Positions 1 to 29,690 of a stretch of DNA of 64,000 bases are shown one piece after another. The notes under the pieces were generated by a model that made no database searches, had not been told where the DNA came from, and saw nothing but the letters and a program-made list of their open reading frames with translations. The stretch lies in the IMG/VR virus record IMGVR_UViG_2061766007_000671. The stretch is one strand, 5' to 3'. Within the stretch, counting starts at the first letter, position 1; each line of letters starts with the position of its first letter. The translations under genes and the position numbers were made by a program. Source of the stretch: an uncultured virus (IMG/VR IMGVR_UViG_2061766007_000671) (lineage: Duplodnaviria > Heunggongvirae > Uroviricota > Caudoviricetes).

Positions 1-106
1 CATCAGCGTATTTATGAAGCTTACCTTCCGCGATTTCTTTTCGCAGGTCTTCACCGATTTCACAGTTGAAAATGCACGTCATTTCTGTATTCATCTCTAT
101 ACCTCC

Positions 107-523
107 TTATGACCAGAGCTTTCCATCAACGTACACCCAGTAGTCGCCGATGCTGTGCTGTCTCTCTGCGGCGTCCGCAGCCGCATCTACGTCGAACGCC
201 CACACCTCGTAGGTCGCGGTGAGCTGTACCTCATACTTCCTGGGCTTGGGGATGTCGGGCTTGAATCCGTGCTCGGTGGCGTACAGGTACAGGGTCTCGG
301 TCTCGTCGGCGGTGGACTCGTTGAAGAACCAGTCGTCGAAGTCCACGCTGTCGTCGAAGTGCTCGTTGTACCACTCCTCCACAATGGAGCGTGGGAAGTC
401 CACCTCCATCATGTTGTCCGGGGTGTCGAAGAACGGATCGTCCAAATCCATGCGGCTCGTGTACTCCGGCACACTGGTCTTGTAAATCGTTACGGTCAGC
501 ATCTCGTCTTTGCAGTTCTCCAT
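107..523 (-). CDS. acidic hypothetical early protein
   Basis: Start moved to ATG 523 behind a GGAGGTGG RBS; ATGA overlap with the upstream gene. Confidence 0.7.
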   Translation of the reverse strand: MENCKDEMLTVTIYKTSVPEYTSRMDLDDPFFDTPDNMMEVDFPRSIVEEWYNEHFDDSVDFDDWFFNESTADETETLYLYATEHGFKPDIPKPRKYEVQLTATYEVWAFDVDAAADAAERQHSIGDYWVYVDGKLWS

Positions 524-798
524 CAGCATTCCACCTCCACAATTTCTGCTGTGCTTTTCCAGTACTTTGTGTTCTCCGGGTTCTTGTACGACCAGTTGCG
601 CTTTGCGTCGCACAGACGGTCGTATCCGTGCAGACGGATTCCTCCCTCCCACAGAGGCATCTTGTTCCACACCGCGTGGTCTCCCTCAACGCCAAGCGTG
701 ATGCCTCCCTTGCCGTAGTAATATACACAGGTCTCTCCCGCAAAACTCTCGTTCTCCGGCGTTGCCACGCTCGTCAACTTCACAATATATTTTACCAA
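523..798 (-). CDS. hypothetical protein
   Basis: Probable TTG start after a GGAG-containing RBS; coupled to both neighbours. Confidence 0.55.
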   Translation of the reverse strand: MVKYIVKLTSVATPENESFAGETCVYYYGKGGITLGVEGDHAVWNKMPLWEGGIRLHGYDRLCDAKRNWSYKNPENTKYWKSTAEIVEVEC

Positions 799-1199
799 TC
801 GTCTCCCTCCTCCCAACGCTCCGGGGGCAGAAGCTCCTGCCCAAAAAGGTTGTACCACTGCCCGCATCCGGGGCACTCACATGCACCCATGTACTCGTTG
901 AACATGGGAAACTCTGCGCCGCATTCGCACAGACCGTAGGCGGGGTCTCTGTACGAATGTGTCTGCTTGATGACCTTGTTGAAGCGGACGTACTTCTCGG
1001 GGTGCGCCATAGCGGACTCCATGTTCCTTCGCCGTGCTTCGTCCACGGCATTGTGGTCAATGCTCGGGTGCTCCGGGGCGGGGAGAATGTTCCCGGCCTC
1101 GTCGCATGGGAAGCACAGCCCGTTGCCGCGCCCGTCATCAAAGACCAGTTCGTAGTAGGTTTCTTCCTTCCACTCGGACGGTGTGTAGCTCTTCAGCAT
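792..1199 (-). CDS. hypothetical protein with C-terminal Zn-ribbon-like CxC...CxxC
   Basis: GGAGG RBS; LCECG...CECPGCGQWYN motif. Confidence 0.7.
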   Translation of the reverse strand: MLKSYTPSEWKEETYYELVFDDGRGNGLCFPCDEAGNILPAPEHPSIDHNAVDEARRRNMESAMAHPEKYVRFNKVIKQTHSYRDPAYGLCECGAEFPMFNEYMGACECPGCGQWYNLFGQELLPPERWEEGDDW

Positions 1200-1217
1200 G
1201 TTTGTGCAGACCTCCTA

Positions 1218-1598
1218 TCAGATATCGAACACGGACAGATTCCATGAGTTTCCAAGCTCCGAATACACGCCGTGCTTATGGAGAAGCTCGTGGAATTCGT
1301 CCTCAACCTTGTACCCGTACCGCCCAAGGTAACCGTTCATTACATCGTAGAACGTACCCTCAAAGGTCATGGTCAAATACGGGCCGACATAGTCGCAGAC
1401 ACGATGTGGATCTACGTCGTGCAGTTCCACAAGGTGCTCCGGGTCGTTGTAGTAGTAATGTCCCTGTCCGTCCGAAGTGCTGTAGGCCATGCCGTTGAAG
1501 TAGATGGTCACGTCCACCCACATCTCATGGTCGAGCAGGAACTGTCGGATTTCCTTGGCAAGCTTACGAATCTGGGGCTTGGTCAGTTTCTTAGGCAT
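1218..1598 (-). CDS. hypothetical protein
   Basis: GAGGAGG RBS; overlaps stop of upstream gene. Confidence 0.7.
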   Translation of the reverse strand: MPKKLTKPQIRKLAKEIRQFLLDHEMWVDVTIYFNGMAYSTSDGQGHYYYNDPEHLVELHDVDPHRVCDYVGPYLTMTFEGTFYDVMNGYLGRYGYKVEDEFHELLHKHGVYSELGNSWNLSVFDI

Positions 1599-1971
1599 CT
1601 TCATCGTCCTCCTCATCGTCGAATTCCCATTCCTTTGGGTAGTAGCCGCTGAGACTCTCTGCATTCACAGCGTCGGAGTACCAAGACTGGAAGTCAGAGC
1701 ACATGATGGCGTCGGCCATCTCGTCGGCATCGTTGAACTCCTCGACGAGTCCGGGGTATTCTCCCAGGCAGTAAATAGCCCGCGCATGGACAGCGTCGAT
1801 ATAGATTTGAAGCTCGTACTCAAAGCCGGGGTCGCCGTACTCTTCCACCTCTTCAGCGCGGACGGTGGTATACAGGAGCGGAATTCTTTTGGGATTCTCA
1901 AAGTCGCCCATGACTCCGTACTCCTTCATGCAGAAGTGGTCGATAGCGTCGCGCAGTTTCGGGTTTACCAT
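1591..1971 (-). CDS. acidic hypothetical protein, first gene after promoter copy 1
   Basis: AAAGGAG RBS directly downstream of the conserved motif. Confidence 0.7.
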   Translation of the reverse strand: MVNPKLRDAIDHFCMKEYGVMGDFENPKRIPLLYTTVRAEEVEEYGDPGFEYELQIYIDAVHARAIYCLGEYPGLVEEFNDADEMADAIMCSDFQSWYSDAVNAESLSGYYPKEWEFDDEEDDEDA

Positions 1972-1990
1972 TTGCACATCTCCTTTCACT

Positions 1991-2021
1991 CCATAGGGAA
2001 CGGCGCGTCAAAAATCGGACA
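1991..2021 (-). promoter_or_regulatory. bipartite phage promoter motif copy 1 (TGTCCGA-N14-TTCCCTATGG)
   Basis: Identical boxes and identical 14-nt spacer in 5 intergenic sites. Confidence 0.8.
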
Positions 2022-2049
2022 GCGCAATGATTACATTTTGATTACAGTT

Positions 2050-2355
2050 TTACAGGTCGTCCCGTGTGACGTACTCGTATGCCCACTTGAGGCAGTCTCG
2101 CTCGTCATCCATGGTCACAATTTCGTCCAGATACTTGCGGTAGCGATGCGCCACACGGCTGCGCAAATCCTCATCATCGCGCAGGGCCTTGAGCATTCCC
2201 ATCGGCTCGTTGTCGTCGTCCCACATGTACTCAAGAAGCTCAAGCACATAGTTCATATCCCACTTGTGCTCCTGCTCCCAGTATGCCTCGGATGCCTCTT
2301 GCGAGGTCAGCTCAAACTCGCGGATGATGCCGTCCACTTCTCTGCGAATCTTCAT
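2050..2355 (-). CDS. acidic hypothetical protein
   Basis: GGAGG RBS; operon position. Confidence 0.65.
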   Translation of the reverse strand: MKIRREVDGIIREFELTSQEASEAYWEQEHKWDMNYVLELLEYMWDDDNEPMGMLKALRDDEDLRSRVAHRYRKYLDEIVTMDDERDCLKWAYEYVTRDDL

Positions 2356-2356
2356 A

Positions 2357-2536
2357 TCAGCACACCTCCAAAGTGTTTCCCGCGCCGTCACAGAGGCGCA
2401 TCATGCCACTCAGCTCTACGTCAATATTGAATTTTGCCATGAACCACTCCAGTTCCGAAACCGCCTTGTCAAGGCTTTCCTGCCTCGTCCGAAAGACTAG
2501 GCGCACTCCATCACAGCGCAGTTCATTCACGGGCAT
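2357..2536 (-). CDS. hypothetical protein
   Basis: AAGGAGG RBS before MPVNELR. Confidence 0.55.
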   Translation of the reverse strand: MPVNELRCDGVRLVFRTRQESLDKAVSELEWFMAKFNIDVELSGMMRLCDGAGNTLEVC

Positions 2537-2993
2537 CTGACAGACCTCCTTCCAGATCTCGGTTGCGGTAGCAGTAGCAATACAGGTCATAGCATCCCAC
2601 TCGGGGCATCATCCGCATGATGAGGCTGTAGACGTTGTGAGTCTTGGGGTAGCTGTCCGGGAACACATCCATGCGGAAGAAGTGGTTTTCTCCCTCACAG
2701 GCATCCGGGAATTCTGCGCAGTACTTTCGCATGGCGGAGCGGTTGTGCAGAGGATTGATTTCCCCGTCCTTGCGCCGCAGGATATTGATTGCCTCGTCGA
2801 AAGCGTCCTTGAATTCCTGGGTCTTCAGCTCCGGGTGATTGTGCTCCCACCACGTCGTCCAGAAATCGTTCCCGCCTCGACCGAAGTCTGCCCGGAGATG
2901 GCCGATGCATTTGCAGATTTCATCACCCTCATCGCAGGTGTAGGCGAACTTGCGCTGTTCCTTGGGAGCGGGGAAAAAAGCCCAACTGTACAT
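2523..2993 (-). CDS. hypothetical protein resembling a domain common in clostridial mobile elements
   Basis: CIGHLRADFG...FWTTW...LKTQEFK...YDLYCYCY pattern recognised from memory; RBS present. Confidence 0.6.
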   Translation of the reverse strand: MYSWAFFPAPKEQRKFAYTCDEGDEICKCIGHLRADFGRGGNDFWTTWWEHNHPELKTQEFKDAFDEAINILRRKDGEINPLHNRSAMRKYCAEFPDACEGENHFFRMDVFPDSYPKTHNVYSLIMRMMPRVGCYDLYCYCYRNRDLEGGLSDARE

Positions 2994-3005
2994 GTGCATT
3001 CCTCC

Positions 3006-3323
3006 TTAATCAAGATAGGGGAAGTAGTCCCACTCGCCAAACACGGCGACCTCCGGGTAGCTCCCGGCGGGAGACTCCTGCCACCGCTGTTTCTTCTCCG
3101 ACCAACGGAAAGTCTTGCGCTTCCCGGCAGGGTCATCCTCAATGTAGTCCGGGAGGGTATCGTAGTACCGCGCGCCAAGGAAGACCGGGCGCGCCGCGCG
3201 CACGGTCACGACGTTCCCCTTAACGGCCTCCACCGTGTAGGGGTTTCGGACAGCCTGCACATAGTACATATTGCAGGGCGTATATGTGTAGAGTTTCTCT
3301 CCAACCACAGGCAGATGTTTCAT
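3006..3323 (-). CDS. hypothetical protein
   Basis: AAGGAGG RBS. Confidence 0.7.
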   Translation of the reverse strand: MKHLPVVGEKLYTYTPCNMYYVQAVRNPYTVEAVKGNVVTVRAARPVFLGARYYDTLPDYIEDDPAGKRKTFRWSEKKQRWQESPAGSYPEVAVFGEWDYFPYLD

Positions 3324-3335
3324 GCAGATCCCTCC

Positions 3336-3707
3336 TTAATCTGTGTAGATTTCGATGTCGATGGTGTCGAACGCCTGTACCAGAGCCGCCACTATATCCT
3401 TGAGGTAGCGGCACTTTGTCTTACTCAGTCGGAACTTGGTGAGCCGCTGATAGGGTCTGTTGTGGATGTTCTCCGTGTATCCCTGCTTCTTGTTGAGGCC
3501 AAGGCAGTTCTTCATGTGGTCTTTTCCCGCCCAGAAGCTGAACATGTTCCACATGTCCTTGCCGTCCTCCTGCCATGTTGAGAGCATGATGAGGTAGGCG
3601 TTCCCCGTGTACAGGTCAAGCTTGTACTCCGCTTCCGTACCGTCCTCCTGCGTCTGTACGAGCGTGGCCTCGCCACATTTTTCAGACCATTCCCAGTGAA
3701 GTGCCAT
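3336..3707 (-). CDS. hypothetical protein
   Basis: AAGGAG RBS. Confidence 0.7.
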   Translation of the reverse strand: MALHWEWSEKCGEATLVQTQEDGTEAEYKLDLYTGNAYLIMLSTWQEDGKDMWNMFSFWAGKDHMKNCLGLNKKQGYTENIHNRPYQRLTKFRLSKTKCRYLKDIVAALVQAFDTIDIEIYTD

Positions 3708-3720
3708 GTGCATTCTCCTT

Positions 3721-3915
3721 TCACATCACGCCGCCAAGCGACGTGGTAATCCACACCAGTTTGTTGTCACTCTTCTGCACGAAGTACTCGTTTCCGACCT
3801 CGTCCGTGTACCACCGAAGCCCGAAGTCTTTTTCGTAGCTCCCCTCTGGCATCCGCTTCAGCTTTCCAACGACCTCCCAATCGAACACGGTCTTTGCCTG
3901 TTCGCGCACTGTCAT
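3721..3915 (-). CDS. hypothetical protein, first gene after promoter copy 2
   Basis: AAAGGAGG RBS; start MTVREQAK. Confidence 0.65.
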   Translation of the reverse strand: MTVREQAKTVFDWEVVGKLKRMPEGSYEKDFGLRWYTDEVGNEYFVQKSDNKLVWITTSLGGVM

Positions 3916-3934
3916 GAGTTTCCCTCCTTTCACC

Positions 3935-3965
3935 CCATAGGGAACGACGGCGGCGGATTCGGACA
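3935..3965 (-). promoter_or_regulatory. bipartite phage promoter motif copy 2
   Basis: CCATAGGGAA 3935-3944 and TCGGACA 3959-3965 on + strand. Confidence 0.8.
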
Positions 3966-4014
3966 CTTGACCGCCGATTTTTATATTTTTGTTGAATTTG
4001 CACAAAAACATGGG

Positions 4015-4044
4015 AAAAGACCGCGCGGGCGGTCGGTCTTTTTT
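4015..4044. terminator. hairpin flanked by A and T tracts, possible bidirectional terminator
   Basis: AAAAGACCG...CGGTCTTTT. Confidence 0.5.
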
Positions 4045-4395
4045 GTCTAATATGACATGCCGCGCGGAGGCCTCCGGGCGGCCATACCTATATAATATTG
4101 TACATATTGACGGAAAAACGACCGCCGCGCCGAAAACAGTCTATCTAATATCGCGTATTAGATGATTATTCATCGTTTATGCAAAAGCAAAAGCTAACTA
4201 TGAATATTTTATGCATATATGCGGCGGATTATGTGCAAATATGCGAGAAAATGAATAAAACAGAGTCCAATAAACGGGACTTTGTTTCCTTGTCAAGGTA
4301 GAAAAAAATTATGCAAAAACGCCGTATATTGTATGAATATCGGCGTATAAATGCATGATATATTGAATAAACAGCGTAAAATATTCAATAGCATG

Positions 4396-4424
4396 CTGTC
4401 AGAAAATGGGCGATATGATATCAT
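4396..4424 (+). promoter_or_regulatory. sigma-A-type promoter candidate (CTGTCA-17-TATCAT, extended TG)
   Basis: 17-nt spacing; precedes AGGAGG RBS and ATG 4463. Confidence 0.5.
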
Positions 4425-4462
4425 ACCCGTAGGAAATGAAAAAAAAACAGGAGGAATTAGCA

Positions 4463-4490
4463 ATGACTAACCGAATTGAGGCCACCCGCG
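4463..4490 (+). CDS. N-terminal fragment (MTNRIEATR) cut by an assembly gap; probable start of the 9790-11001 ORF
   Basis: AGGAGG RBS; ends in GAG GCC ACC CGC codons typical of the GC-rich ORF. Confidence 0.55.
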
Positions 4491-4500
4491 NNNNNNNNNN

Positions 4501-4572
4501 ACCAATTTCCTCAAGCTTGAACTCCATGCTGTCAAGCTGATAGGAAAGCTGTTCGCGCACTTCCTCCGCCAT
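4501..4572 (-). CDS. N-terminal fragment of a hypothetical protein truncated by the gap
   Basis: GGAGG RBS then MAEEVREQLSY... Confidence 0.5.
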
Positions 4573-4585
4573 GTTTTACACCTCC

Positions 4586-4849
4586 TCAGACCACACGGAT
4601 GTATATGGGATGCGTCTCCCAACTCTTCTTCGTGAGCACACAGCCCCGGGAGTACAGGATATATTCGATAGCATCCTGTAGCTCTCCAAAGTCAGATCCA
4701 TAGATGTTGGACGCGCTCTCCGGGTCTTCCTCTTTTTCCGGGTTCTCGATGGTTATGCCGCGCTTCTCAAGGAAGTCCTCAAAGGCCTCGATAATGGCGG
4801 TCTCGGTCTCCAGTAGCTGACGGTTGTCGTTCTCGGTGATGACTATCAT
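4586..4849 (-). CDS. acidic hypothetical protein
   Basis: AAGGAGG RBS. Confidence 0.7.
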   Translation of the reverse strand: MIVITENDNRQLLETETAIIEAFEDFLEKRGITIENPEKEEDPESASNIYGSDFGELQDAIEYILYSRGCVLTKKSWETHPIYIRVV

Positions 4850-4861
4850 GTGCGCACCTCC

Positions 4862-5233
4862 TTAAAATTCGCACCACGAGCGACCGTGGCGCACAGCATT
4901 CTCTGGGAGCAGGCGAGGATAATATAAAGGCGTCCGATTTTCAAGGTAGTAGCACCACTTTCCTGCTCCCTTGCAGTCGTGCTTACTTCCCGGCGGGATG
5001 TGCGTGATGTGTCTGATAGTGTCCAGATACTCTGCGGGCAGAAACATCTTGCCCATGATGAACGCATGCCCAACGATTGTGGGGTACTCCCCACGATGTG
5101 TGCGGATGATGGCGACGCGCTTATGCACACAGTTCTTGAGCATGTCCCTGCTTCTCGTCTCGATGAATTTGTTCCCATTCACGATAGCGTCAGCGTAATC
5201 CACCTCGTCGCAGTTCACGAAGATACCTATCAT
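4862..5233 (-). CDS. ASCH/PUA-like domain protein
   Basis: YADAIVNGNKFIETRS matches the ASCH GxKxxExR motif. Confidence 0.75.
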   Translation of the reverse strand: MIGIFVNCDEVDYADAIVNGNKFIETRSRDMLKNCVHKRVAIIRTHRGEYPTIVGHAFIMGKMFLPAEYLDTIRHITHIPPGSKHDCKGAGKWCYYLENRTPLYYPRLLPENAVRHGRSWCEF

Positions 5234-5245
5234 CGCCGCGCCTCC

Positions 5246-5569
5246 TCAAATGAAGTCGGAGACACTCATGCCCGGAGCGTCCCACGGATTTGCAGAGCTG
5301 TAGTCTCCCCCGGTGACAGAGCGGATGTAATCGCGCTCCCACGGGTCTACATACTCTTCCCAGTCATCCCCATACGGGTCTTCCTCTACTTCCTCGACCT
5401 CTCCCAAGCGATTGGAAAAGACGTTCTTGCACCCGCATTCGCGCAGGTCGCGAACACGATTGTTCAGTTCTTCAGACGTTCCGACGAACATCTCGTGGCA
5501 GTTCTCCTCATCCGGGAAGAACCCAAAGTTATCGTGCCAGTCGTAGATGATCTCAAACTCGAACCGCAT
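5246..5569 (-). CDS. acidic hypothetical protein
   Basis: GGAGG RBS; C-terminal NPWDAPGMSVSDFI. Confidence 0.7.
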   Translation of the reverse strand: MRFEFEIIYDWHDNFGFFPDEENCHEMFVGTSEELNNRVRDLRECGCKNVFSNRLGEVEEVEEDPYGDDWEEYVDPWERDYIRSVTGGDYSSANPWDAPGMSVSDFI

Positions 5570-5712
5570 CAGATAGCCGCCTCCCCTACTGTTTTTGTGC
5601 CGCTCTTCACGTCGTAGATGATGCGCAGGCCTGTGAACTTGTTTTCAAACTCGATGACTCCCGGCGCGACCTCGCGCAGGAATGCAAATCCAGACCGATA
5701 GAGTATATCCAT
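5569..5712 (-). CDS. 47-aa hypothetical protein (below ORF-track cutoff)
   Basis: GAGGAGG RBS; MDILYRSGFAFLREV...; TGATG coupling. Confidence 0.6.
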   Translation of the reverse strand: MDILYRSGFAFLREVAPGVIEFENKFTGLRIIYDVKSGTKTVGEAAI

Positions 5713-5716
5713 GCTG

Positions 5717-6007
5717 TCAAGCCTCCTCTTTGCTGACCACGCCGTCGCAGTACAGGCCGCCGCTCTTCTTTGCAGACTTCATGACGGAGAGGAACGTCTC
5801 CATCAGCTCGGCGAAGTTCTTGTCGTCATCGACGTACCATGCGGCCTCGTCGTCTTCCACATTCTCGGCGACAGACAGGTCGCCGTACTCGATATCGCCG
5901 TCGCCGACCCCCAGAATGAGCCAGTGCTCGAAGACCGACTCGTCATTGACCTGCCGCGCGATGTACTCCATCGCCTTGACCATCTTCACGCGCTCGATTT
6001 TGTTCAT
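5717..6007 (-). CDS. acidic hypothetical protein
   Basis: GGAGG RBS before MNKIERV. Confidence 0.7.
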   Translation of the reverse strand: MNKIERVKMVKAMEYIARQVNDESVFEHWLILGVGDGDIEYGDLSVAENVEDDEAAWYVDDDKNFAELMETFLSVMKSAKKSGGLYCDGVVSKEEA

Positions 6008-6009
6008 GT

Positions 6010-6369
6010 TCAGCCCTCCCCATTCCCGGACAGGCATTTGCAGACCTTGTCCATGTTGAAACGGTACTCCGGGTAGACACACCACCCGCTGAATCCGTGC
6101 ATCCCGGTCGGCTCGGCGAGGCCGTTGGCCTCAAGAAACTCGGGCAGGAACGGCGCATTATTCACGTCCACGAATGCGCAGTCCTCCCCGGACAGCGGCT
6201 CGTCGGGCAGGTTGACGGTGATGTCGCAGTAGGGCGACATGAATCCGAAATCCGGGTCGAGCGTCATCAGCCCCAGATACATGCGGTTCTGCCGCTTGAA
6301 GCAGTAGGTGTCTTTGGTCAGCTCGGCGCACTCAATCTCGCCAGTCCACGGGTTCACAAAGTTCAGCAT
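6010..6369 (-). CDS. DUF4313-like protein
   Basis: PYCDITVNL...AFVDVNN...FLEANGLAEPTG...SGWCVYPEYRF pattern. Confidence 0.7.
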   Translation of the reverse strand: MLNFVNPWTGEIECAELTKDTYCFKRQNRMYLGLMTLDPDFGFMSPYCDITVNLPDEPLSGEDCAFVDVNNAPFLPEFLEANGLAEPTGMHGFSGWCVYPEYRFNMDKVCKCLSGNGEG

Positions 6370-6371
6370 AT

Positions 6372-6659
6372 TCAAACCTCCTCAAAAGTTTTGTCCAGTT
6401 CTTCAGCGACGGCCTCACACCATGCCATCGCGTCACTCACTACGTCCTCGTAGGAATCCCGGAACGGATACCCTGCATTCAGCGCGTTGTCCATGCCCTC
6501 GTACAGCTTATCCTCGTAGTAGTGGTTCTGCACCTCGTCCCAGAGATACTCAAGGGCAAGCATGCTTTTGCAGATTTCGTCGAGCAATTCGTTTGCCCGT
6601 GTGGCAAGCTTGAGCACCTCTGCCCTGTGGTTTTTGCTGATGTCGATTTCTACCATCAT
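6372..6659 (-). CDS. acidic hypothetical protein, first gene after promoter copy 3
   Basis: GAGGAGG RBS. Confidence 0.7.
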   Translation of the reverse strand: MMVEIDISKNHRAEVLKLATRANELLDEICKSMLALEYLWDEVQNHYYEDKLYEGMDNALNAGYPFRDSYEDVVSDAMAWCEAVAEELDKTFEEV

Positions 6660-6676
6660 GTGAGCCTCCTCTCGCT

Positions 6677-6707
6677 CCATAGGGAACGGCAGGGCCAAAT
6701 TCGGACA
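6677..6707 (-). promoter_or_regulatory. bipartite phage promoter motif copy 3
   Basis: CCATAGGGAA 6677-6686 and TCGGACA 6701-6707. Confidence 0.8.
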
Positions 6708-6737
6708 CTCTGCCGTTCGTCATTTTGCACAAACTTT

Positions 6738-7358
6738 TCAGTCGTCCATCCAGTATGTCCACCGGGTCAGCTTGGACAGGCCGTACCGTTTCAGATACGC
6801 GCGGCATTTCTTCAGATGGGAGGCCGCGACACGTTCGTATGCATCTCGGAGCAAAGCCACGTCCTCATCGGTGCAGACGTATCCCTTACGCCACCCGTCA
6901 AAGAGAAGCTCCTGCCCCTTCAGAGCAGGGAGGAATGCCACGCCGCCGACAGCTTCCAGAACGTCGGTCACGCGCATGAAGTTAATGCCCCGGAGCTGTC
7001 GCGTGTTACCGCACAGCACCACCATGCGCGTCAGTCCGTGTTCGCTCAGATTCTGGAGCACGTTTGCGTACTCCTTCATGTTCTCGCGCAGGAAATGCGC
7101 CTCGTTCTTCCCGGCCTCGTAGCATTCCCGGCTTGCCTCCTCATACGTCGGGCCAAAGCCCAAGTCACTGTACCCGAAGCAGAAGCGGGTCTGCACCCTC
7201 TGCTTGTCGATTCCTACCAACAGCCCGTTGGACAGCTTCACCACCTCGGCGGCCTGCTTCACGCAGTAGTCCGCCAAGTCCTCACCATACCCGTCCTCGA
7301 TGTGGGCCGCGCGGTACTCTTCCATGAGCGCCGCATCTTTACAGTTCTTCTTAGGCAT
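6738..7358 (-). CDS. hypothetical protein
   Basis: AAAGGAG RBS; 206 aa ending YLKRYGLSKLTRWTYWMDD. Confidence 0.75.
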   Translation of the reverse strand: MPKKNCKDAALMEEYRAAHIEDGYGEDLADYCVKQAAEVVKLSNGLLVGIDKQRVQTRFCFGYSDLGFGPTYEEASRECYEAGKNEAHFLRENMKEYANVLQNLSEHGLTRMVVLCGNTRQLRGINFMRVTDVLEAVGGVAFLPALKGQELLFDGWRKGYVCTDEDVALLRDAYERVAASHLKKCRAYLKRYGLSKLTRWTYWMDD

Positions 7359-7373
7359 GTCTGTGCTCCTTTC

Positions 7374-7802
7374 TCAGCCCATCGTAAAGGCCAAATCCCG
7401 CAGGATGTCCTTACCGATGCTCATATCCTTGTTCTCGCTCGTGTACTTGGTGTCCGGGCGCAGGTAGATTCCCTCCTCCCCCTTTTCCGTGCAGATGTCG
7501 TCGATGTCGTAGGTGTACCACCTATTGAAGCTTTCGGTCTTCCAGTCGTTCTCCCGGTCGATGACGTGCTCGGTCACCTCCATCGTGAACGACGGCGCAT
7601 CAAAGGTCTTCTCGGCCTCGCGCTTGGCGTTGACCGCCTTTGCCCAGATTTTCCGCATGCCGTCGATGAAGTCGGCAAGATCTCCAATGCTCGCGCCCGC
7701 GCTCAGTTCTACCTCGGCAGTGTACTTGCTCGTGTGCTCCTCCCCCTTGACGCGCCGGGAGAGGGTCATCTCACAGCTGATTTTCTTGAAACGGTTTTCC
7801 AT
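7374..7802 (-). CDS. hypothetical protein
   Basis: AAGGAG RBS. Confidence 0.7.
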   Translation of the reverse strand: MENRFKKISCEMTLSRRVKGEEHTSKYTAEVELSAGASIGDLADFIDGMRKIWAKAVNAKREAEKTFDAPSFTMEVTEHVIDRENDWKTESFNRWYTYDIDDICTEKGEEGIYLRPDTKYTSENKDMSIGKDILRDLAFTMG

Positions 7803-7820
7803 AGTTGTGCAGGTCTCCTT

Positions 7821-8036
7821 TCACTTGCGAGGCACATCGGTCTCAGTGTTGTACGGCATGCTGACGAACGTGGGGCGAATCGTGTCCCACGCGCCTTGGT
7901 AGGAGCGGCCCGGAATCTTGTCCCAGATGGGTGTCGCCGTCTTGCAGTTCTTCAGAACCTGTCCGGCCTTTTCATGCCCGCGCATGAGCTTGGACATCTC
8001 GGCCTGTGCCAGTTTGCGGTAGCGTTTTGCTGTCAT
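7821..8036 (-). CDS. basic hypothetical protein
   Basis: GAGGAG RBS. Confidence 0.6.
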   Translation of the reverse strand: MTAKRYRKLAQAEMSKLMRGHEKAGQVLKNCKTATPIWDKIPGRSYQGAWDTIRPTFVSMPYNTETDVPRK

Positions 8037-8064
8037 GGTAGATGCTCCTCTGTTATATAGATTT

Positions 8065-8180
8065 CGCGGGCGGGCAGTTCCGTTGCGCGGGGGCTTGTCG
8101 TGCGGTAAACCATTCCCGCGCCTTTATCACATCCGCACCAGTGCGCACGGTTGACTCAAAGCCCCTGCCCGAAACCCGCG
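8065..8180 (-). ncRNA. compact structured RNA candidate with a pseudoknot, in the long leader after promoter copy 4
   Basis: Five nested Watson-Crick helices plus a 6-bp crossing helix (see findings); strand inferred from the promoter. Confidence 0.5.
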
Positions 8181-8351
8181 CACCAACGCCCGCGCAAATG
8201 TCGGGCGCTCGTGTGCAGATTTCCCGGCGGGATGTCGGCGTGTCCAGACCGNNNNNNNNNNNNNNNNNNNGTCCGTTGTCGTTCCTGTCTCCCCGTCCCA
8301 AGAGGAATCACATGCCGGGTTTTCCTCGCCTCCTTTGTGCAGGTCTTCACC

Positions 8352-8382
8352 CCATAGGGAACGGGAGCGTCAAATTCGGACA
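8352..8382 (-). promoter_or_regulatory. bipartite phage promoter motif copy 4
   Basis: CCATAGGGAA 8352-8361 and TCGGACA 8376-8382. Confidence 0.8.
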
Positions 8383-8412
8383 CCTCCCTCGGTTACAAAT
8401 GTTTACAGTTTT

Positions 8413-8571
8413 TCACGCCATCGCGACGATGCCCCACTCCTCTCCCGGATACAGGCGGCGGGCCTCGCTCAGATTGACTTGCGCCGTCAGCATGTCGCGC
8501 GTCGCGCGTCCGAACATATACGGCTTGCCAATGACGCGCACATAATAGGTCATGTTCTTGCAGAGCTTCAT
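8413..8571 (-). CDS. 52-aa hypothetical protein
   Basis: AAGGAG RBS; MKLCKNMTYYVRVIG... Confidence 0.55.
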   Translation of the reverse strand: MKLCKNMTYYVRVIGKPYMFGRATRDMLTAQVNLSEARRLYPGEEWGIVAMA

Positions 8572-8585
8572 ACAGTTCTCCTTCC

Positions 8586-8723
8586 TCAGAGTCGGTTGCG
8601 GTCAATCCAGTCGGCCCGCCGCAGGACGTTCCGCCATTCGATTGTGCCAATTTCCATCGTGCAGGACAGCGACTGCAAGTGATTTCTGTACCACCTCCAG
8701 TCCGTTTTGCTCCAGTTCTTCAT
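8586..8723 (-). CDS. 45-aa Trp-rich hypothetical protein
   Basis: GAGGAGG RBS right after promoter copy 5; MKNWSKTDWRWY... Confidence 0.6.
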   Translation of the reverse strand: MKNWSKTDWRWYRNHLQSLSCTMEIGTIEWRNVLRRADWIDRNRL

Positions 8724-8742
8724 GCTGTGGCCTCCTCTCACC

Positions 8743-8773
8743 CCATAGGGAATAAAATCGGAAAATTCGGACA
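8743..8773 (-). promoter_or_regulatory. bipartite phage promoter motif copy 5
   Basis: CCATAGGGAA 8743-8752 and TCGGACA 8767-8773. Confidence 0.8.
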
Positions 8774-8859
8774 GTAAATCTGTAACAAATGTTTACAGAT
8801 TTTGGGATGATACCCATCAAAGCCGCCCACGCGCACGTCGGCGGCTTTAGTTGATACCA

Positions 8860-8994
8860 TCACGCGAGGGACAGGATGTTGTCCCCGTAGATGCCGCGCA
8901 GGGTGCGCATGGCGGCCTTGCGGGTGCGTCCCCATTCTGTGCGCGGGAACACCTCCCCGTTTTTAAGATGAACCATGATTGTGTGGATTTTCAT
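8860..8994 (-). CDS. 44-aa basic hypothetical protein
   Basis: GAGGAGG RBS; MKIHTIMVHLKNGEVF... Confidence 0.55.
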   Translation of the reverse strand: MKIHTIMVHLKNGEVFPRTEWGRTRKAAMRTLRGIYGDNILSLA

Positions 8995-9053
8995 ATGATG
9001 ACCTCCTCATAAGATTGCAGGCGCGACGTTCCGCGCCGCGCCTGTGCAGATTT

Positions 9054-9734
9054 TCAGTGCTCTTTGCAATAGACGGTCTCGCCTGCTACGCAACCTCTGT
9101 GCAGATTTTTACACACGTCGCAGTTGCCCGGGCAGTAAAACCCGGCGGGCGGAGTCTCGTCTTTGAACACGACCCGGAACTCGGGCATGCCGTGCGGGTT
9201 TTCCATTGGCATGCCGCGCCACTCGGAAAACATCACGGTGAAGTTTTCCGGGAGCGCGCCGTGCTCGTCAATCCATGTGTTCACGATGCCGTACATTTTT
9301 GTGTACGTCCAGAACACAAAATCGGGATGCGCCCGCGCGATTTTTACCATGCGGTCGAAATAGTCGCCGTCGATGATGTCGCCCGCGACGTGCCAGCGGA
9401 AAAACTTGTTTTTCCGCCGCCGGGATATCGCGTCATCAATCCGGGCAAAAAACCCGTCGCGATCTTTTCGCAGGACGGTAAAGTTTCGCATGCGCGCGTC
9501 GATTACCGTGCCCGGATACTGGGCGCATGCTTTGATGTCGTAGCAAATTTTCATGCATTCTTTGCAATTGCCGCACGACATCACGGGCATATGCGAGACG
9601 TTCATCACGCGCCCGATTTTACGATTGCCTCCGCTGATGCAAAGCGGGATGTCTCGCGCGTCGAGCCTTTCAAGCTCCGCGCCGCGCTCGCGCGCTTTTT
9701 TCATCACGCGCCGCAGTGTTTCGATTGAGTACAT
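9054..9734 (-). CDS. GP88-family (radical-SAM-like, Cys-rich) protein
   Basis: GNRKIG, SCGNCKECMKICY, FRWHVAGDI, FWTYTK and CPGNCDVC motifs; start MYSIETL after GGAGG. Confidence 0.7.
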   Translation of the reverse strand: MYSIETLRRVMKKARERGAELERLDARDIPLCISGGNRKIGRVMNVSHMPVMSCGNCKECMKICYDIKACAQYPGTVIDARMRNFTVLRKDRDGFFARIDDAISRRRKNKFFRWHVAGDIIDGDYFDRMVKIARAHPDFVFWTYTKMYGIVNTWIDEHGALPENFTVMFSEWRGMPMENPHGMPEFRVVFKDETPPAGFYCPGNCDVCKNLHRGCVAGETVYCKEH

Positions 9735-9789
9735 TCGATTGCCTCCAATCAATCTGTTTTCCTCGCCCGGAGCAGGCCNNNNNNNNNNC

Positions 9790-11001
9790 TCCGCGCTCCG
9801 CGCGTCCGACCTCGATGGCCTCCGCGCCATCCGCCCGGAGGCCGTCGCCGACCTCGTCGCCGCCGCCGTCTCCCGCGCCATCGACCGCCGCGAGGCGGAG
9901 ACCGGGCGCGACGGTCGCGCCCTCCGCGCCCGGTACGCCTCGACCCGGGTCACGCTGTCCGAGACCATGAACGCCGACGCCATCGGCGAGGCCTGCGCCG
10001 TCCTGCTCGAGATGATGACCCCGGGCGGATGGATTGACGGCGAGGCCGTCGCGATGACCGACCGGGAGACGGGCGACCCCGTCGCCGTCGCCCGCCGAGA
10101 CCTCCCGCTTGCCTACGTCGCCGCCATCGCCGCCGGGCGCGGCCTCGACCGTGTGATGTACGCCGACGGCGGACACGCCGTCAAGATGACCGCCCGGGAG
10201 GCTCGGGAGAGCTACGACCGCGCCGCCCGGGAGGCCGTCAAGACCCGCGCCCGCCTCGAGGCCGCCGGGGAGGAAGTCCCGGAGCAGGTCGCCCGCCTCG
10301 CCGAGATGGCGGAGGCCGCCGAGGTCGCCGACCTCCTCGCCGCCGAGGCCGCCGCCCGCCCGGATGACCGGGAGGCCGCCCGCCTCGCTCGCGTCGCCCG
10401 CTCCGAGTATCTCGCCTCCTCCGCCGCCGTCGCCGCCCGGATGACTCCGAGCGAGACCCGCCGCACGGTTGACCCGGTCGCGCCCTCCCCGGAGGCCGCC
10501 GCCATCTCGGCGGAGACCGTCGCCGCCATCCTCTCGGAGGTCTCGCCCGCCTACGTCTCCGCCGCCGTCGCCATCGCCCGAGAGGTATACCGGGGAGCGA
10601 CGACCGCCGACGGCCTCGCGAATGTCGCCGAGGCCGCCCGCCTCGCGGGAATCCCGGAGCGGAAAGCTCGCCGGGCATGGGAGGCCGTCAAGGCCGCCGC
10701 CGCCATCGCCCGAGAGGAAGACCGCGCCGAGGCCGTCGAGATGGCGAGGAAGACCCGCGCCGACGGTCGCCGCGCCGCCGTCCGCCTCCACCGGGAGAGC
10801 GTCGCCGCCGCCGCCGAGGCCGCCCGCCTCGCCGGGATGGAGCTTGACCGGGAGGCCTCCCCGGAGGCCGTCGCGATGTGGGGAGAGGTCGCCCGGAGGA
10901 CTCGCCCGGAGCGCCTCGCCGCCGTCGCCCGGATGACTCCCGCCGACCTCGCCGCCCTCCGCGACCTCGCCCGCGCCGTCTTCCTCGCCGCCGCCGAGTA
11001 A
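9790..11001 (+). CDS. GC-rich Ala/Arg/Glu-rich protein, candidate divergent sigma-70/ECF-like factor (5' end lost in gap)
   Basis: 403 open codons with strong GCC/GAG/CGC/GTC/CTC bias; region-2-like DAIGEACAVLLEM, linker PSPEAAAISAETVAAILSEVSP, HTH-like VAEAARLAGIPERKARRAW. Confidence 0.55.
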   Translation, partial: SALRASDLDGLRAIRPEAVADLVAAAVSRAIDRREAETGRDGRALRARYASTRVTLSETMNADAIGEACAVLLEMMTPGGWIDGEAVAMTDRETGDPVAVARRDLPLAYVAAIAAGRGLDRVMYADGGHAVKMTAREARESYDRAAREAVKTRARLEAAGEEVPEQVARLAEMAEAAEVADLLAAEAAARPDDREAARLARVARSEYLASSAAVAARMTPSETRRTVDPVAPSPEAAAISAETVAAILSEVSPAYVSAAVAIAREVYRGATTADGLANVAEAARLAGIPERKARRAWEAVKAAAAIAREEDRAEAVEMARKTRADGRRAAVRLHRESVAAAAEAARLAGMELDREASPEAVAMWGEVARRTRPERLAAVARMTPADLAALRDLARAVFLAAAE

Positions 11002-11021
11002 ATCCCGCCGCTGTCCTATAA

Positions 11022-11045
11022 AAGGCCCTCCCGCCGGAGGGCCTT
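11022..11045 (+). terminator. GC-rich hairpin after the GC-rich ORF
   Basis: AAGGCCCTCC-CGCC-GGAGGGCCTT; weak U tract. Confidence 0.5.
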
Positions 11046-11475
11046 CCCCATGCCCTATATATGACTATATACTCATATGAGAATACCTATATATGAGTAT
11101 CTATTTATATGTATATATAATAATATGTCATTATATTCATATGACCATGTCCGCATATAATGGTATGAGAGCATGCTATTGATTGAGCGCGTCCTTTTTA
11201 GCACTCGCTCCCGGAGATTGCCAGTCTATACGATACCATGCTATTAATTGCATGCTATCAATAGCTTGCTTTCGGTATGCCCGCCGGGAGGCCCGCCGCC
11301 CGAGCCGTCATTACATGTATAAAGACGGCTCGAGGCGGTCACCTCCCCCCAGTTTCGGAATCGAATGTACATATGATCATGTGTTCTCCCCGGCGGCACT
11401 TCCCAAATCACAACTATTTCAAAAAATGATCTATAGGGTTGGTGGTGGCGGAATAGGGAAAAATTGGTGAAGTGC

Positions 11476-11505
11476 TTGACAAGTATAGGTGGTGCATGGT
11501 ATTAT
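11476..11505 (+). promoter_or_regulatory. sigma-A promoter for the ncRNA locus
   Basis: TTGACA-18-TATTAT with extended TG. Confidence 0.65.
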
Positions 11506-11668
11506 GCCCCGCCAATAAGGGATGTGCTGGGACGCATCATTGGTGGAATCTCCTTTCTGAACAGGGTATAGCCCCTGGTGGTTTATCGGCATGGGCTGCC
11601 GGGGGCGGTACTCATAACAGGTAGGGGTAAAAAAAATTTGCGCGGTCGCTTCGCGACATAGAGTATAA

Positions 11669-11740
11669 GCCGGAGTAGCATAGGGGGAAGTGCGCCGCTC
11701 TTTTAATGCGGATACGCGGGTTCGATTCCCGTCTCTGGTT
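11669..11740 (+). tRNA. tRNA-Lys(TTT), atypical, no encoded CCA
   Basis: Cloverleaf GCCGGAG/CTCTGGT, GCAT/GTGC, CCGCT-CTTTTAA-TGCGG, GCGGG-TTCGATT-CCCGT. Confidence 0.75.
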
Positions 11741-11771
11741 GATCCTGCGCAGGGATTATGTGGGCGAGTCG

Positions 11772-12354
11772 GCTGCCTTATTAACGTCGGCCTGCGGAGA
11801 TAGCGACCACTCCGCCGCAGCTCAGAAAGTTCAGGGTGAAATAAAAGGAGACGCCCTGGCAGATGGCAAGTTCGCAATAGTCTGCCGAAGCAAACTGCGG
11901 CGGGGNNNNNNNNNNNNNNNNNNNNNNNNNNNNNNNNNNNNNNNNNNNGCCCTTTATAGTTTATTTTCCGTGGACACGGCGCGCTATATGCGCTATGAAG
12001 TCGGATTGGGTAGGAAGTCCTGAACGATCCCGGTCAAGCCCCGATTGTCTAATTGCGGGTATGAGGATTATCCAAAAGCGGGGCATCTTCCTCCGTGGGA
12101 ACTACGTCAGTGCCAACAATATGGGGCAGAGCCACCCGGCATTACGGGAGGACACATCAGGCGACGGGGACATTTCCTCGAAGAGCCAAAGGGGTGCGAG
12201 ACCCCGCTGCCCCTATAGAAACGAAAGAGCATAGTAGGGGCTTCGGCCATGTGTTCTTGCATAGGGCGGGCGTCGGGGCTTGCCCTTAGTTCTCGCAATC
12301 GCCAATCTGCTGTGTGCGCTACCGACAGGCGGCACGAGCGGTGCGGCGACCGCT
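11772..12354 (+). ncRNA. large ornate structured RNA (ROOL/GOLLD-like candidate)
   Basis: Long-range 5'/3' closing helices and many internal helices with G-U pairs favouring the + strand; follows a tRNA; no credible ORF; followed by a terminator; family not verified. Confidence 0.7.
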
Positions 12355-12392
12355 TCTTCTGATTCCTTTCCTTTCTTCATTTGGTTGCCTCC

Positions 12393-12449
12393 ATCGGGGA
12401 ACGCTCATCGCTTCGGCGGTGGGCGTTCTTCGATTTACTCTTTACTTTT
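12393..12449 (+). terminator. intrinsic terminator
   Basis: 19-bp stem with C-TTCG-G loop then T-rich tail. Confidence 0.7.
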
Positions 12450-12873
12450 ACGCGCGTATGTGATATAAAATAAGAGCAGGGCAAGCGCGGGCGGCGCAAG
12501 CTCTGTTGGTTTGGTCTGCGGGTTCGTGGTGGTTCCCGCAGGTCTCAATTCGGTGCAGGAGTTTTATTTTTTTCTCCTGCGGCGGGGCGCTCGTCACTAC
12601 GGTGGCGGGCGTCTTTCGCATTCACCGTAGCTCACCGTCACCTACCGTGCGCCATCGCGTCGGCTATGGGTCGGCTACGCATCGGCATATTCTCTCCAGC
12701 AGTTACACTTTTCCTATAATTACTGGAGAAAATACGGCACTCCCCCCTGGGTTTCAAAATCTAAAGTGACAGTTTGGATCGGCATTTTCGGATGCCGATT
12801 TTTAATTTTCAAATAATTTTTCGGCTTCGCCGAATAAAGATAGCGCCGGTTCCCCTCATCCCCTTGACATGGG

Positions 12874-12882
12874 TGTTATAAT
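12874..12882 (+). promoter_or_regulatory. extended -10 promoter (TGnTATAAT)
   Basis: 30 nt upstream of ATG 12912. Confidence 0.5.
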
Positions 12883-12911
12883 GCTCCGTTTCATAGGGGG
12901 TGTAAGAATCG

Positions 12912-13211
12912 ATGGCGATCCGCAAGATTGATCTCATGCACAGGCAGTTTGGATTCAGCCCAGGTCACAAGTGCCAGTACTGCGATAACCTGATTGTGCA
13001 GCAGGCGAACCGCCGATACTACAAGTGCGAGGTGTACGGCGTGACAGACAGCGAAGCGAGCGACTGGCGTTTGTCCTACGATGCCTGCGGTATGTACAAC
13101 AGGGTATACAACGGCAACCCGGTCATCCGCATGGTACGTCCGTGGCCTGTGCCTGAATCACCGCTTCCCGGACAGGAATCATTATTTAGAGAGGAGATAA
13201 CCAATGAATGA
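12912..13211 (+). CDS. Cys-containing hypothetical protein
   Basis: CQYC...KCEVYG...DW...ACG motif. Confidence 0.7.
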   Translation: MAIRKIDLMHRQFGFSPGHKCQYCDNLIVQQANRRYYKCEVYGVTDSEASDWRLSYDACGMYNRVYNGNPVIRMVRPWPVPESPLPGQESLFREEITNE

Positions 13212-14838: not shown

Positions 14839-16095
14839 TCACTTTTTCGGCACTTCTGAAATTTTCCCCATACCGTTCCCCATGCGATTTTCGTTGTTCA
14901 AAATGCCGACAGCCCGAATTGCGTCCGTTTTTCCGGTGTCCACATAGATGTTCGCAGTAGTGGTAATGTCTGCGTGACCCATCAAATACTTTGTCACTTC
15001 AATAGGAACTTCGGCCCGCTGCATATCTGTTCCAAAGGTATGGCGCAGGCAGTAGGTGACAATATCGGGAGACAGCTTATGCCCATTGCGCGGCTTCTTC
15101 GGATCATCAGGATCTGGGTATAACGGCGTACCGTCATACTTCAAATCGGACGGATCGTAGATATGTCCTCGCTTGTCGTGCTCCGCGCCCATCTCCAAAT
15201 CCCAGGTCCGGGAGAACGACGCCCAATAGGATTTGAACGCCTGCCGCGTGAGCATACCCCCATCTTTCTTTGCAAAGAGAAATGCTGACTTGTCTTTCAC
15301 TGAAACGTAATTCAGCAAGTCAGTCACTATAGCGTGGTCTTCCCTGTCGTTGATTACAGTATAGCGAATGCCGGACGCAGTTTTCGGCGTACTAATCTCC
15401 CTCGATCCTGTTTCCACTGCCTGCGTGATGTGGACGAGTTTCTGCTCAAGGTCAAGGTCTGCAACGCATACGGCTGCAAGTTCATTGGGTCTTATACCGG
15501 TGGCCATGAGAAATCGGAAAAGAAGACCGTGAGGATTTCTCTTTGCTGCCTTGAAGAATCCATCCTTTTCTTCTTCGGAAAGAGAACGCCTAGAGCCTTT
15601 CGCCGCCGCTGGAAGCGACAGACCCGCTGATGGATCATAAGTAATGATACGGTCTATACACGCCTGCCCGAACATCTTTTTGATTGTTATGTTCAACTTC
15701 GTCACCTGAGAAAAGGACATATCCTTATTTCCATTCAAAATCGCCTGAAGGTGAGTCGGAAGAACTTCCCTCATACGCAGCGTTCCGACCGCAGGAACAA
15801 TGTAATTACGGACGAGCTGCTCGTAGGATTTATAGGTAGCTTCATTCATCGTGCCGCGCAGCTTCGGCTCACCCGGCTTGCGTACCCTTGGTTTGTTGTA
15901 GGTTTCAAGCCATGTGTTCGCCCAGTTGCGTACCGTCATGTCTGCGCCGATGCCGATGTCGCCGCGCTTGGCGGCATCTACCTTCTCTACGAGTTTTCGT
16001 CGAGCCTCTGCCCTGGTCTTGCCCCAGCCCTCGTATTGCTTCCCGTTATATACTTCCGTCTCGCGGACGTATTGGTATTTCTTTTCCTTTTTCAT
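14839..16095 (-). CDS. int: tyrosine integrase
   Basis: TGIRPNE, PKT, YCLRHTF, LMGH, TANIY catalytic motifs. Confidence 0.95.
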   Translation of the reverse strand: MKKEKKYQYVRETEVYNGKQYEGWGKTRAEARRKLVEKVDAAKRGDIGIGADMTVRNWANTWLETYNKPRVRKPGEPKLRGTMNEATYKSYEQLVRNYIVPAVGTLRMREVLPTHLQAILNGNKDMSFSQVTKLNITIKKMFGQACIDRIITYDPSAGLSLPAAAKGSRRSLSEEEKDGFFKAAKRNPHGLLFRFLMATGIRPNELAAVCVADLDLEQKLVHITQAVETGSREISTPKTASGIRYTVINDREDHAIVTDLLNYVSVKDKSAFLFAKKDGGMLTRQAFKSYWASFSRTWDLEMGAEHDKRGHIYDPSDLKYDGTPLYPDPDDPKKPRNGHKLSPDIVTYCLRHTFGTDMQRAEVPIEVTKYLMGHADITTTANIYVDTGKTDAIRAVGILNNENRMGNGMGKISEVPKK

Positions 16096-29367: not shown

Positions 29368-29690
29368 TGAACAAGCTTTGGGTTTGCCGCTCGACGGCGG
29401 AGAACATAAAACGAGCCGAGAAGTACGAATACTTCAAGGCCAATGAAAAATACTGCCTTGTCATCACGGACGAAACGCCGGACAAAATGGCGGAAGTCCA
29501 GGGTGACGCCGTTAAGTCTCTGACTGTTCAGGACTGGACATGGATAAAGGCGGTCGGCGAAAAAATCAAGGCAGAAACGGAGTACACTGCGTTTCAGCAA
29601 CAGCAGAAAGAGTTTCTGGAACGCTTTGAAGCGGAACTGAAAGGGAGAATGACGGATGCCGGAAACCCCGATGGTGGAAGAAAAGAATAA
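29364..29690 (+). CDS. hypothetical protein
   Basis: ATGA coupling to TerL. Confidence 0.6.
   Translation: MMNKLWVCRSTAENIKRAEKYEYFKANEKYCLVITDETPDKMAEVQGDAVKSLTVQDWTWIKAVGEKIKAETEYTAFQQQQKEFLERFEAELKGRMTDAGNPDGGRKE

Follow-up and report, generated by a model that had tools for sequence, protein, structure and literature searches.

A sigma-like gene masked by its composition and a repeated promoter-like motif in an uncultured temperate phage

Does a GC-rich, low-complexity-looking gene in an uncultured virus encode a sigma factor for the promoter-like motif that is repeated on the arm of small genes beside it? The gene lies on the + strand, ending at 11001, in a 64,000-nucleotide stretch of DNA from a tailed virus (IMG/VR record IMGVR_UViG_2061766007_000671; Caudoviricetes), which we refer to as the window. 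Phage-encoded sigma factors are a known route for taking over host transcription, and a reading of the window from its letters alone had proposed that this open reading frame (ORF) is a cryptic member of that kind. Taking sequence and structure evidence together, we find it very probable that the protein is sigma-derived. That it works as a phage sigma factor, redirecting the host core RNA polymerase to five promoters on the arm, is the account of its function that we somewhat favour.

A real gene beneath a strong composition bias

On the + strand the frame stays open between 9553 and the stop codon, with codons readable from 9790, the first readable base after a masked run of N (9779-9788). 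A GGAG sits at about 9770, some 10 nt before the run, which therefore probably hides the true start codon. The sequence-only reading had placed the ORF at 9790..11001; its end and stop were right, but 9790 is merely the first base after the masking. A longer version of the ORF, counted from 9553, would give a protein of 482 aa; its extra part runs antisense through the neighbouring GP88-family gene, and the portion before 9779 bears no resemblance to any homologue.

At 77.4% GC (0.81, 0.59 and 0.93 at codon positions 1, 2 and 3), the gene stands out from the rest of the window, which is 53.4% GC. Its third codon positions are 64% C, with A and T at 3-4% each, and codon choice is narrow: GCC makes up 86% of Ala codons, GTC 91% of Val, CTC 86% of Leu and GAG 95% of Glu. 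The protein itself is 27.5% Ala, 13% Arg and 10% Glu. In a repeat search the GC-rich stretches of the gene were only 60-85% self-similar, a bias without true repetitiveness. All six frames are unusually open across the GC-rich stretch, and the long antisense ORF at 9670-10791 (373 aa, opposite strand) is the usual by-product of such composition.

With every frame so open, gene callers could pick the wrong one, and the ORF might be no functional gene at all, its frame held open by high GC or the real gene being the 373-aa ORF on the other strand. We regard this as extremely improbable. It is already contradicted by the GC content at third codon positions of the + frame (GC3), by the homologues, which keep the frame down to 14-20% identity in the alignment, members of ordinary composition included, and by the confidence of the AlphaFold2 models (predicted local distance difference test, pLDDT, 89-93). 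Because the homologues align with in-frame indels and invariant residues, this is not a chance ORF, and because some family members (e.g. P0024, P0029 and P0032-P0036) have an ordinary composition, with 9-16% Ala, the frame is not a GC artefact either. We conclude that the sigma-like ORF is a real gene. Past its stop lies a GC-rich hairpin that is possibly a terminator; the terminator scan requires a T run, and this hairpin is absent from its list.

The family is small and found only in metagenomes. Of 8000 scored candidates, 14 were homologous at E<=1e-3 (348-554 aa, 38-76% identity), and a profile search of 1.84 billion protein representatives returned 26 sequences at E<=1e-3, 12 of them at E<=1e-30. 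Most close relatives carry an extra N-terminal part of 75-150 residues, which is missing from the window copy and from P0014, P0019 and P0022. Among 50,697 GenBank phage records there was no match to the DNA at 8900-13000 or to the family proteins P0001, P0035 and P0024, and one genome from each of 185,579 prokaryote species yielded no locus with a relative. A related-locus search with the family alignment A1 found two IMG/VR loci, both cut at the gene, and two short metagenome loci. G001, the nearest record, is a fragment of 15 kb that lacks the sigma-like gene, and in two others (G002 and G003) the divergent arm is missing. In the literature on phage-encoded, divergent and rumen-prophage extracytoplasmic function (ECF) sigma factors we found no description of the family.

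Sequence and structural links to sigma factors

The family connects to sigma factors in steps. Using hhalign, we compared profiles of the window subgroup (A5, 21 sequences), an intermediate group (A7, 7 sequences), a low-GC group (A6, 6 sequences) and an alignment of RpoE (A4) that was built from the E. coli K-12 protein and is narrow, its homologues being 86-100% identical. The window subgroup matched the intermediate group at 99.8% (E 1.5e-28, 278 columns, window residues 1-399), and the intermediate group matched the low-GC group at 99.65% (E 3.7e-25, 204 columns), with the N-terminal domain included. The direct match of the window subgroup to the low-GC group, at 98.1%, covers the sigma4-like part and the extension behind it. 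The low-GC group in turn matched RpoE at 83.8% (E 7.8e-6, 116 columns), in a register that sets 'EDAAQEALL' on region 2.2 of RpoE ('PDVVQEAFI') and the segment from 'GPGPE' through the helix-turn-helix (HTH) on RpoE residues 115-178.

Library models point the same way for the less biased members. The sigma70-ECF model TIGR02937 was matched by 5 of the 35 members at E<=0.1. The best of these, P0035 (E 1.5e-10, 40.9 bits), aligns in one stretch from residue 57 to 229 with profile positions 6-159 of 165, and the matches of P0033 (2.8e-4) and P0032 (6e-4) both span sigma2 to sigma4. PHROG 1740, 'RNA polymerase sigma factor', was matched by 5 of 20 members, at values from 6.4e-8 (P0035) to 5.2e-4. 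Homology to sigma factors is thus detectable by profiles, through the chain A5-A7-A6-RpoE. These comparisons support, by a transitive link, the identification of the window protein as a highly diverged member of the sigma-70 family with an ECF-like order of sigma2, linker and sigma4.

The predicted structure has the same layout (table 1). AlphaFold2 modelled the full-length protein, from a 35-sequence alignment, with a pLDDT of 89.3 and a predicted template modelling score (pTM) of 0.51, and the N-terminal domain alone (residues 1-137) with values of 92.8 and 0.84. The sigma-2-like domain consists of helices at residues 5-14, 16-38, 42-49, 63-76 and 107-131; residues 87-100 form an inserted beta-hairpin. 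C-terminal to it, and joined by a flexible linker, is a sigma-4-like domain with an HTH. The lineage-specific helical hairpin inserted between the two domains is missing from the short family members P0020-P0036. Behind the HTH, the C-terminal extension prolongs the recognition helix (helix 290-349) and contains a block, E-D-G-E...L-E-R-x-I-x-S-D-x-R-T, that is conserved in most members. The peptides on which the sequence-only reading had based its proposal of a cryptic sigma-family protein are encoded by the + frame in the order it gave and fall in the sigma2-like and sigma4-like parts, which, with the transitive profile links, supports that proposal. Its view that composition would hide the gene from annotation is matched by the library searches below, and its statement that the window holds no other sigma gene agrees with the absence of a Pfam sigma domain at E<=1e-3 from 76 other ORFs picked from the window.

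Fold comparisons gave a mixed answer. In a search independent of Foldseek, over 48,161 chains, about 24 of the 50 rows listed for the N-terminal domain came from sigma entries, in four or five of which the title leaves it unsaid which chain is the sigma. When the full model was compared with the PDB by Foldseek, about half of the rows listed were sigma chains (sigmaS, sigmaA, sigma32, SigL and sigma28), at E values of 0.77-4. In this structural check, of the kind that the sequence-only reading had proposed, none of the rows reaches E<=1e-3. In the profile check against sigma-70, the direct comparisons of RpoE with the whole family (A2) and with the intermediate group reached only 3.6% and 1.9%, in the expected register.

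Those weak direct scores count against the sigma identification, and so do several further results. The window protein had no match in Pfam and PHROGs at E<=1 or in NCBIfam at E<=0.1, profile A1 had none among PDB sequences at E<=10, and the ESM Atlas gave no usable match for the window protein. Foldseek returned nothing at E<=1e-3 for the full model, either from the PDB or from BFVD, where the top row was SigF of phage Eldridge (E 0.22), and for the N-terminal domain alone it placed no sigma factor in the top 50 (best E 0.38). The curated sigma-70/ECF scores (TIGR02937, PF04542 and PF04545/PF08281) are reached by no member: P0035 comes to 40.9 bits against a cut-off of 42.9, and Sigma70_r4_2 (PF08281) gives at most 21.9 bits in the family against a cut-off of 25.7. 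The only Pfam matches above cut-off in the family are HTH_23 in P0036 (25.6 bits) and Terminase_5 in P0033 (25.8 bits). Finally, the conserved Q of the D-A-x-Q-E motif is Gly in the window protein.

Several of these features would also suit a sigma-derived HTH regulator that has kept the sigma-like folds and lost the role of a polymerase subunit, and that instead activates or represses the arm or the lysis-lysogeny region. The HTH and the extension that follows it are the best-conserved and best-supported part of the protein, the matches above cut-off are to generic HTH models, the similarity to sigma-2 is weak and includes the change of Q to G in D-x-x-Q-E, and the large insertions and long C-terminal extension would fit as well, as would the position of the gene near an integrase, a tRNA and a repressor-like gene. 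We nonetheless think this account somewhat unlikely. The N-terminal domain is conserved family-wide and is collinear with sigma region 2 in both profile and structure comparisons, and the form of the motif, described next, also speaks against it.

A bipartite motif on the divergent arm

The arm that diverges from the gene carries five copies of TGTCCGA-N14-TTCCCTATGG, all on the − strand (table 1); both the repeated bipartite motif and the divergent transcription of the gene had been read from the letters alone, and both stand. The 7-mer, the 10-mer and the 14-nt spacing are exact in all five copies, and the letters of the spacer vary. TGTCCGA alone is not enriched (15 matches, 10 expected); with the weight matrix of the whole motif, the five copies score 56-60, and no other site in the window exceeds 3.8. 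In four of the five, GGAGG follows 7 nt past the 10-mer and is itself followed by ATG; in the copy at 8382 the Shine-Dalgarno (SD) sequence lies further on. In a related contig from a different study (run X6), copy 4 retains its two blocks and the 14 nt between them, with different spacer letters.

The centres of the two blocks are about 22.5 bp apart, the same distance as in −35/−10 promoters. This spacing, the placement on one strand and the fixed distance to the SD sequence fit a promoter better than an operator, which is the second point against the HTH-regulator account. A promoter for a T7-like single-subunit RNA polymerase was considered and rejected: the conserved part of the motif is split into two blocks by 14 nt of variable letters, and the scanned ORFs include no polymerase of this type.

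In the account that we favour, the protein would bind the host core RNA polymerase through its sigma-2-like domain, and the polymerase would then be directed to the five sites on the leftward arm. The upstream 7-mer would be recognized by sigma-4 and the downstream block by sigma-2, with transcription beginning immediately before the conserved GGTGAAAGGAGG ribosome-binding leader. We infer that the protein binds RNA polymerase, that it matches this motif and when it would be expressed; its pairing with these sites is plausible as a candidate suggested by adjacency. Weighing against it, the implied transcript leader before the SD sequence is only a few nucleotides long, and the link between protein and motif comes from adjacency in two loci only.

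The second of these loci, L004, encodes a homologue that is 39% identical to the window protein in the best tblastn segment and 78% identical to P0022. The divergent intergenic region beside this homologue contains two copies of CCGTTCCC(T/C)AT(G/T)G, in which the upstream block ACAATGCGG(C/T)TTTTG (ATGCGG) replaces TGTCCGA. Between the two proteins the sigma2-like helix is conserved and the recognition helix of the HTH differs (RKARRAWEAV in the window, RRTQQIFTAI in L004). A conserved sigma2-like helix together with a changed recognition helix is what the sigma model would predict, and with two loci it may be taken as a hint. The change of the upstream block, again with n=2, fits covariation or no relation equally well, and to that extent weakens the case for pairing. 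Two small paralogous arm proteins (44-52 aa, with a G-R-x-T-R segment) are common to the window (8860-8994 and about 8415-8570, −) and L004 (about 1990-2125 and 1817-1975, −); the arm is therefore syntenic with the sigma-like gene.

The protein could also be a functional phage sigma factor with other targets, the motif sites being read by a host sigma or another phage factor, or serving as a leader or processing element at the RNA level. The conserved block runs straight into the leader GGTGAAAGGAGG, so that its conservation is possibly in part translational or RNA-level; besides the dependence of the protein-motif link on adjacency, a 15-mer taken from the motif hit 16 loci in IMG/VR, of which none encodes a family member. 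These 16 matches lie in unrelated contexts, however, and look like chance. The motif is also unlike TTGACA/TATAAT, and in both informative loci its copies stand in the arm that diverges from the gene. We judge other targets to be quite unlikely, and continue to prefer a sigma factor that serves the arm promoters.

How the gene itself would be expressed is a further difficulty for this preference. No sigma-70-like site was found directly upstream of it on the + strand, and its own promoter was not identified. The sequence-only reading had assigned it a host sigma-A promoter at 4396-4424; a sigma-70 consensus match exists there, but it is 5.3 kb away, directly upstream of a small + strand ORF at 4464 that it would serve, with − strand genes in between, and that assignment finds no support.

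Two further elements recur near the start sites of arm genes. A near-palindrome, AAAA(A/T)CTGTAAACATTTGT(T/A)AC, lies directly upstream of two or three motif copies (8779-8803 and 8389-8413, −, and a weaker one at about 2030-2055) and resembles an operator, overlapping the promoter-like sites, to which a dimeric regulator would bind. A short word, AAAATCTGCA(A/C)A, recurs in front of the ribosome-binding sites that serve several of the small arm genes, both in the window (e.g. 9040-9060, −) and in L004 (1720-2430, −).

If the protein is a working sigma factor, it and the motif would form a sigma/promoter pair, from uncultured phages of the cattle gut, that can be tested directly. It would also be a new part for orthogonal transcription, distinguished by its unusual insertions and by the conservation of its C-terminal extension. 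The two natural variants, which differ in the upstream promoter block, could be used for specificity mapping. Since no curated model captures the family and GenBank phages lack it, standard annotation leaves the gene and an arm of about 9 kb of small genes unexplained.

Phage context, GC enrichment and known sigma factors

The window is from a temperate siphophage of Firmicutes type, at about 53% GC. Its large packaging protein matches solely phages of Bacillus, Lactococcus, Clostridium and similar hosts, the best being a faecal 'Bacteriophage sp.' at 40% identity, and near-identical DNA is present in bovine gut metagenome runs. To the left of the sigma-like gene is the leftward arm, whose small − strand genes occupy 1 to 9734; to its right come an AT-rich stretch, a tRNA-Lys gene and the integrase. 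The repressor-like gene is also near it. Coordinates are collected in table 1.

Table 1. Positions in the window of the sigma-like gene, its domains, the motif copies and other landmarks (residue numbers refer to the sigma-like protein).
Feature	Position	Strand	Basis or remark
Sigma-like gene	9779..11001	+	ORF, N run, GC3 0.93, homologues; readable codons 9790-10998 (403 aa), stop 10999-11001
Sigma-2-like helical domain	9790..10182 (residues 1-131)	+	D-A-x-(Q/G)-E-A motif and 'LPLAYVAAIAAGRGLDRVMY' helix
Long helical hairpin between the two sigma-like domains	10192..10440 (residues 135-217)	+	Alignment, model
Sigma-4-like domain	10489..10719 (residues 234-310)	+	'P-x-PEAAAI...' then HTH (VAEAARLAGIPERKARRAWEAVKAAA)
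Family-specific C-terminal extension	10720..10998 (residues 311-403)	+	Alignment, profile comparisons, model
GC-rich hairpin	11024..11043	+	23 nt past the stop; GGCCCTCC-CGCC-GGAGGGCC; without T run; read from sequence
Motif copy 1	8743..8773	−	Weight matrix 56.8; then GGTGAGAGGAGG and ATG
Motif copy 2	8352..8382	−	Weight matrix 56.9
Motif copy 3	6677..6707	−	Weight matrix 60.3
Motif copy 4	3935..3965	−	Weight matrix 59.9
Motif copy 5	1991..2021	−	Weight matrix 56.0
GP88-family neighbour gene (PF17338)	9057..9734	−	E 1.2e-25; start about 45 nt from that of the sigma-like gene
tRNA-Lys(UUU)	11668-11741		
Integrase	14839-16095	−	
RecE/RecT/SSB/DnaB replication block	within the + strand block	+	
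Portal	29656-31479		
tRNA-Thr(UGU)	35058-35132		Inside the late gene block
tRNA-Gln(UUG)	36971-37044		Inside the late gene block
1312-aa ORF, tape-measure-like	47849-51787		Size and position only
GH25 endolysin	57696-58583		

Some neighbouring features deserve mention in their own right. Directly past the gene, an AT-rich stretch (11045-11170) with repeated TATATGAGTAT/CATATGA words, followed by the tRNA-Lys gene, is a possible attachment site or origin-like region, with the integrase nearby. All three tRNAs read A-ending codons, and the host may use such codons less than the phage does. In the leftward arm, an AT-rich intergenic island at 4040-4470 contains several sigma-70-like matches on both strands, together with the small + strand ORF from 4464, which is cut by a masked run; the island may be a second regulatory region. 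Past the lysis genes, a class-V aminotransferase-like gene (59161-60258, −; PF00266, E 5e-35; PHROG 12787) is unusual phage cargo. The window contains six masked runs of N in all (4491-4500, 8252-8270, 9779-9788, 11906-11948, 47788-47817 and 50258-50290), one of which interrupts the gene behind the motif copy at 8382.

The GC enrichment of the sigma-like gene is a puzzle in itself. Across the loci the gene ranges from 58.5% GC in L004 (3497-4390; rest of the locus 52.1%) through 69.5% in L003 (169-1230; 52.6%) and 71.9% in L002 (1-771; 51.4%) to 77.2% in L001 (118-1197; 52.0%), next to which stands the window gene (9790-10998). The shift is sharp at the ORF boundaries in the window; in L001 the enrichment extends about 300 nt beyond the gene. 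At third positions C rises to 64-66%, with 3-5% each of A and T. C is favoured over G, a preference that the codon usage of high-GC bacteria does not simply account for. Over the same family the alanine content rises from 9-16% to about 28-31%. The genes may have been imported from high-GC donors, repair or conversion may be biased, or selection may act on the DNA or mRNA. A GC drive confined to the gene and asymmetric between strands we consider unlikely; candidates for it would be biased repair or gene conversion, or selection at the DNA or mRNA level, e.g. for throttling or timing translation of the sigma factor. If simple import from high-GC donors is not the source, a targeted process acting on a master regulator would be indicated. 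Extreme enrichment in GC and alanine, limited to one gene, shows that composition can hide a regulator.

Among the closest known systems are the ECF (group 4) sigma factors such as E. coli RpoE, which have the same order of sigma2, linker and sigma4. The D-x-x-Q-E-A helix and the one after it fall on region 2 of RpoE in the alignment, the 'PE...' helix and HTH fall on RpoE 115-178, and the candidate bipartite promoter has a spacing like that of −35 and −10 elements. The differences are considerable: the window protein is twice the size of RpoE, scores nothing against the curated models whose cut-offs no family member reaches, and has a beta-hairpin insert in sigma2, a helical hairpin of 80 residues in the linker and a conserved C-terminal extension of about 90 residues. 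No anti-sigma gene was recognized near it, and the blocks of the window motif are unlike the ECF promoter consensus, which is of the GGAAC/CGTC type.

With phage sigma factors (PHROG 1740; gp28 and gp34 of SPO1, gp55 of T4) the window shares the arrangement of a sigma-family gene beside genes with a phage-specific repeated promoter-like motif, and the low-GC family members match PHROG 1740 directly, whereas neither the window protein nor its subgroup of 21 members does. Further differences are the lack of any relative in the 50,697 GenBank phage records and the lifestyle: SPO1 and T4 are lytic, while the window phage, with its integrase, is temperate. Phage-only sigma clades have been described, and gp28, gp34 and gp55 are named as essential phage sigma factors (PMC9429907).

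HTH_23 and Terminase_5 resemble the family through the central HTH, which provides its only Pfam matches above cut-off. These models cover 25-40 residues, however, and leave the conserved N-terminal domain and the full-length collinear sigma match unexplained. The kind of protein, a sigma-family member, is already known; lying below every curated membership threshold, the family is a variant of it with insertions and an extension of its own.

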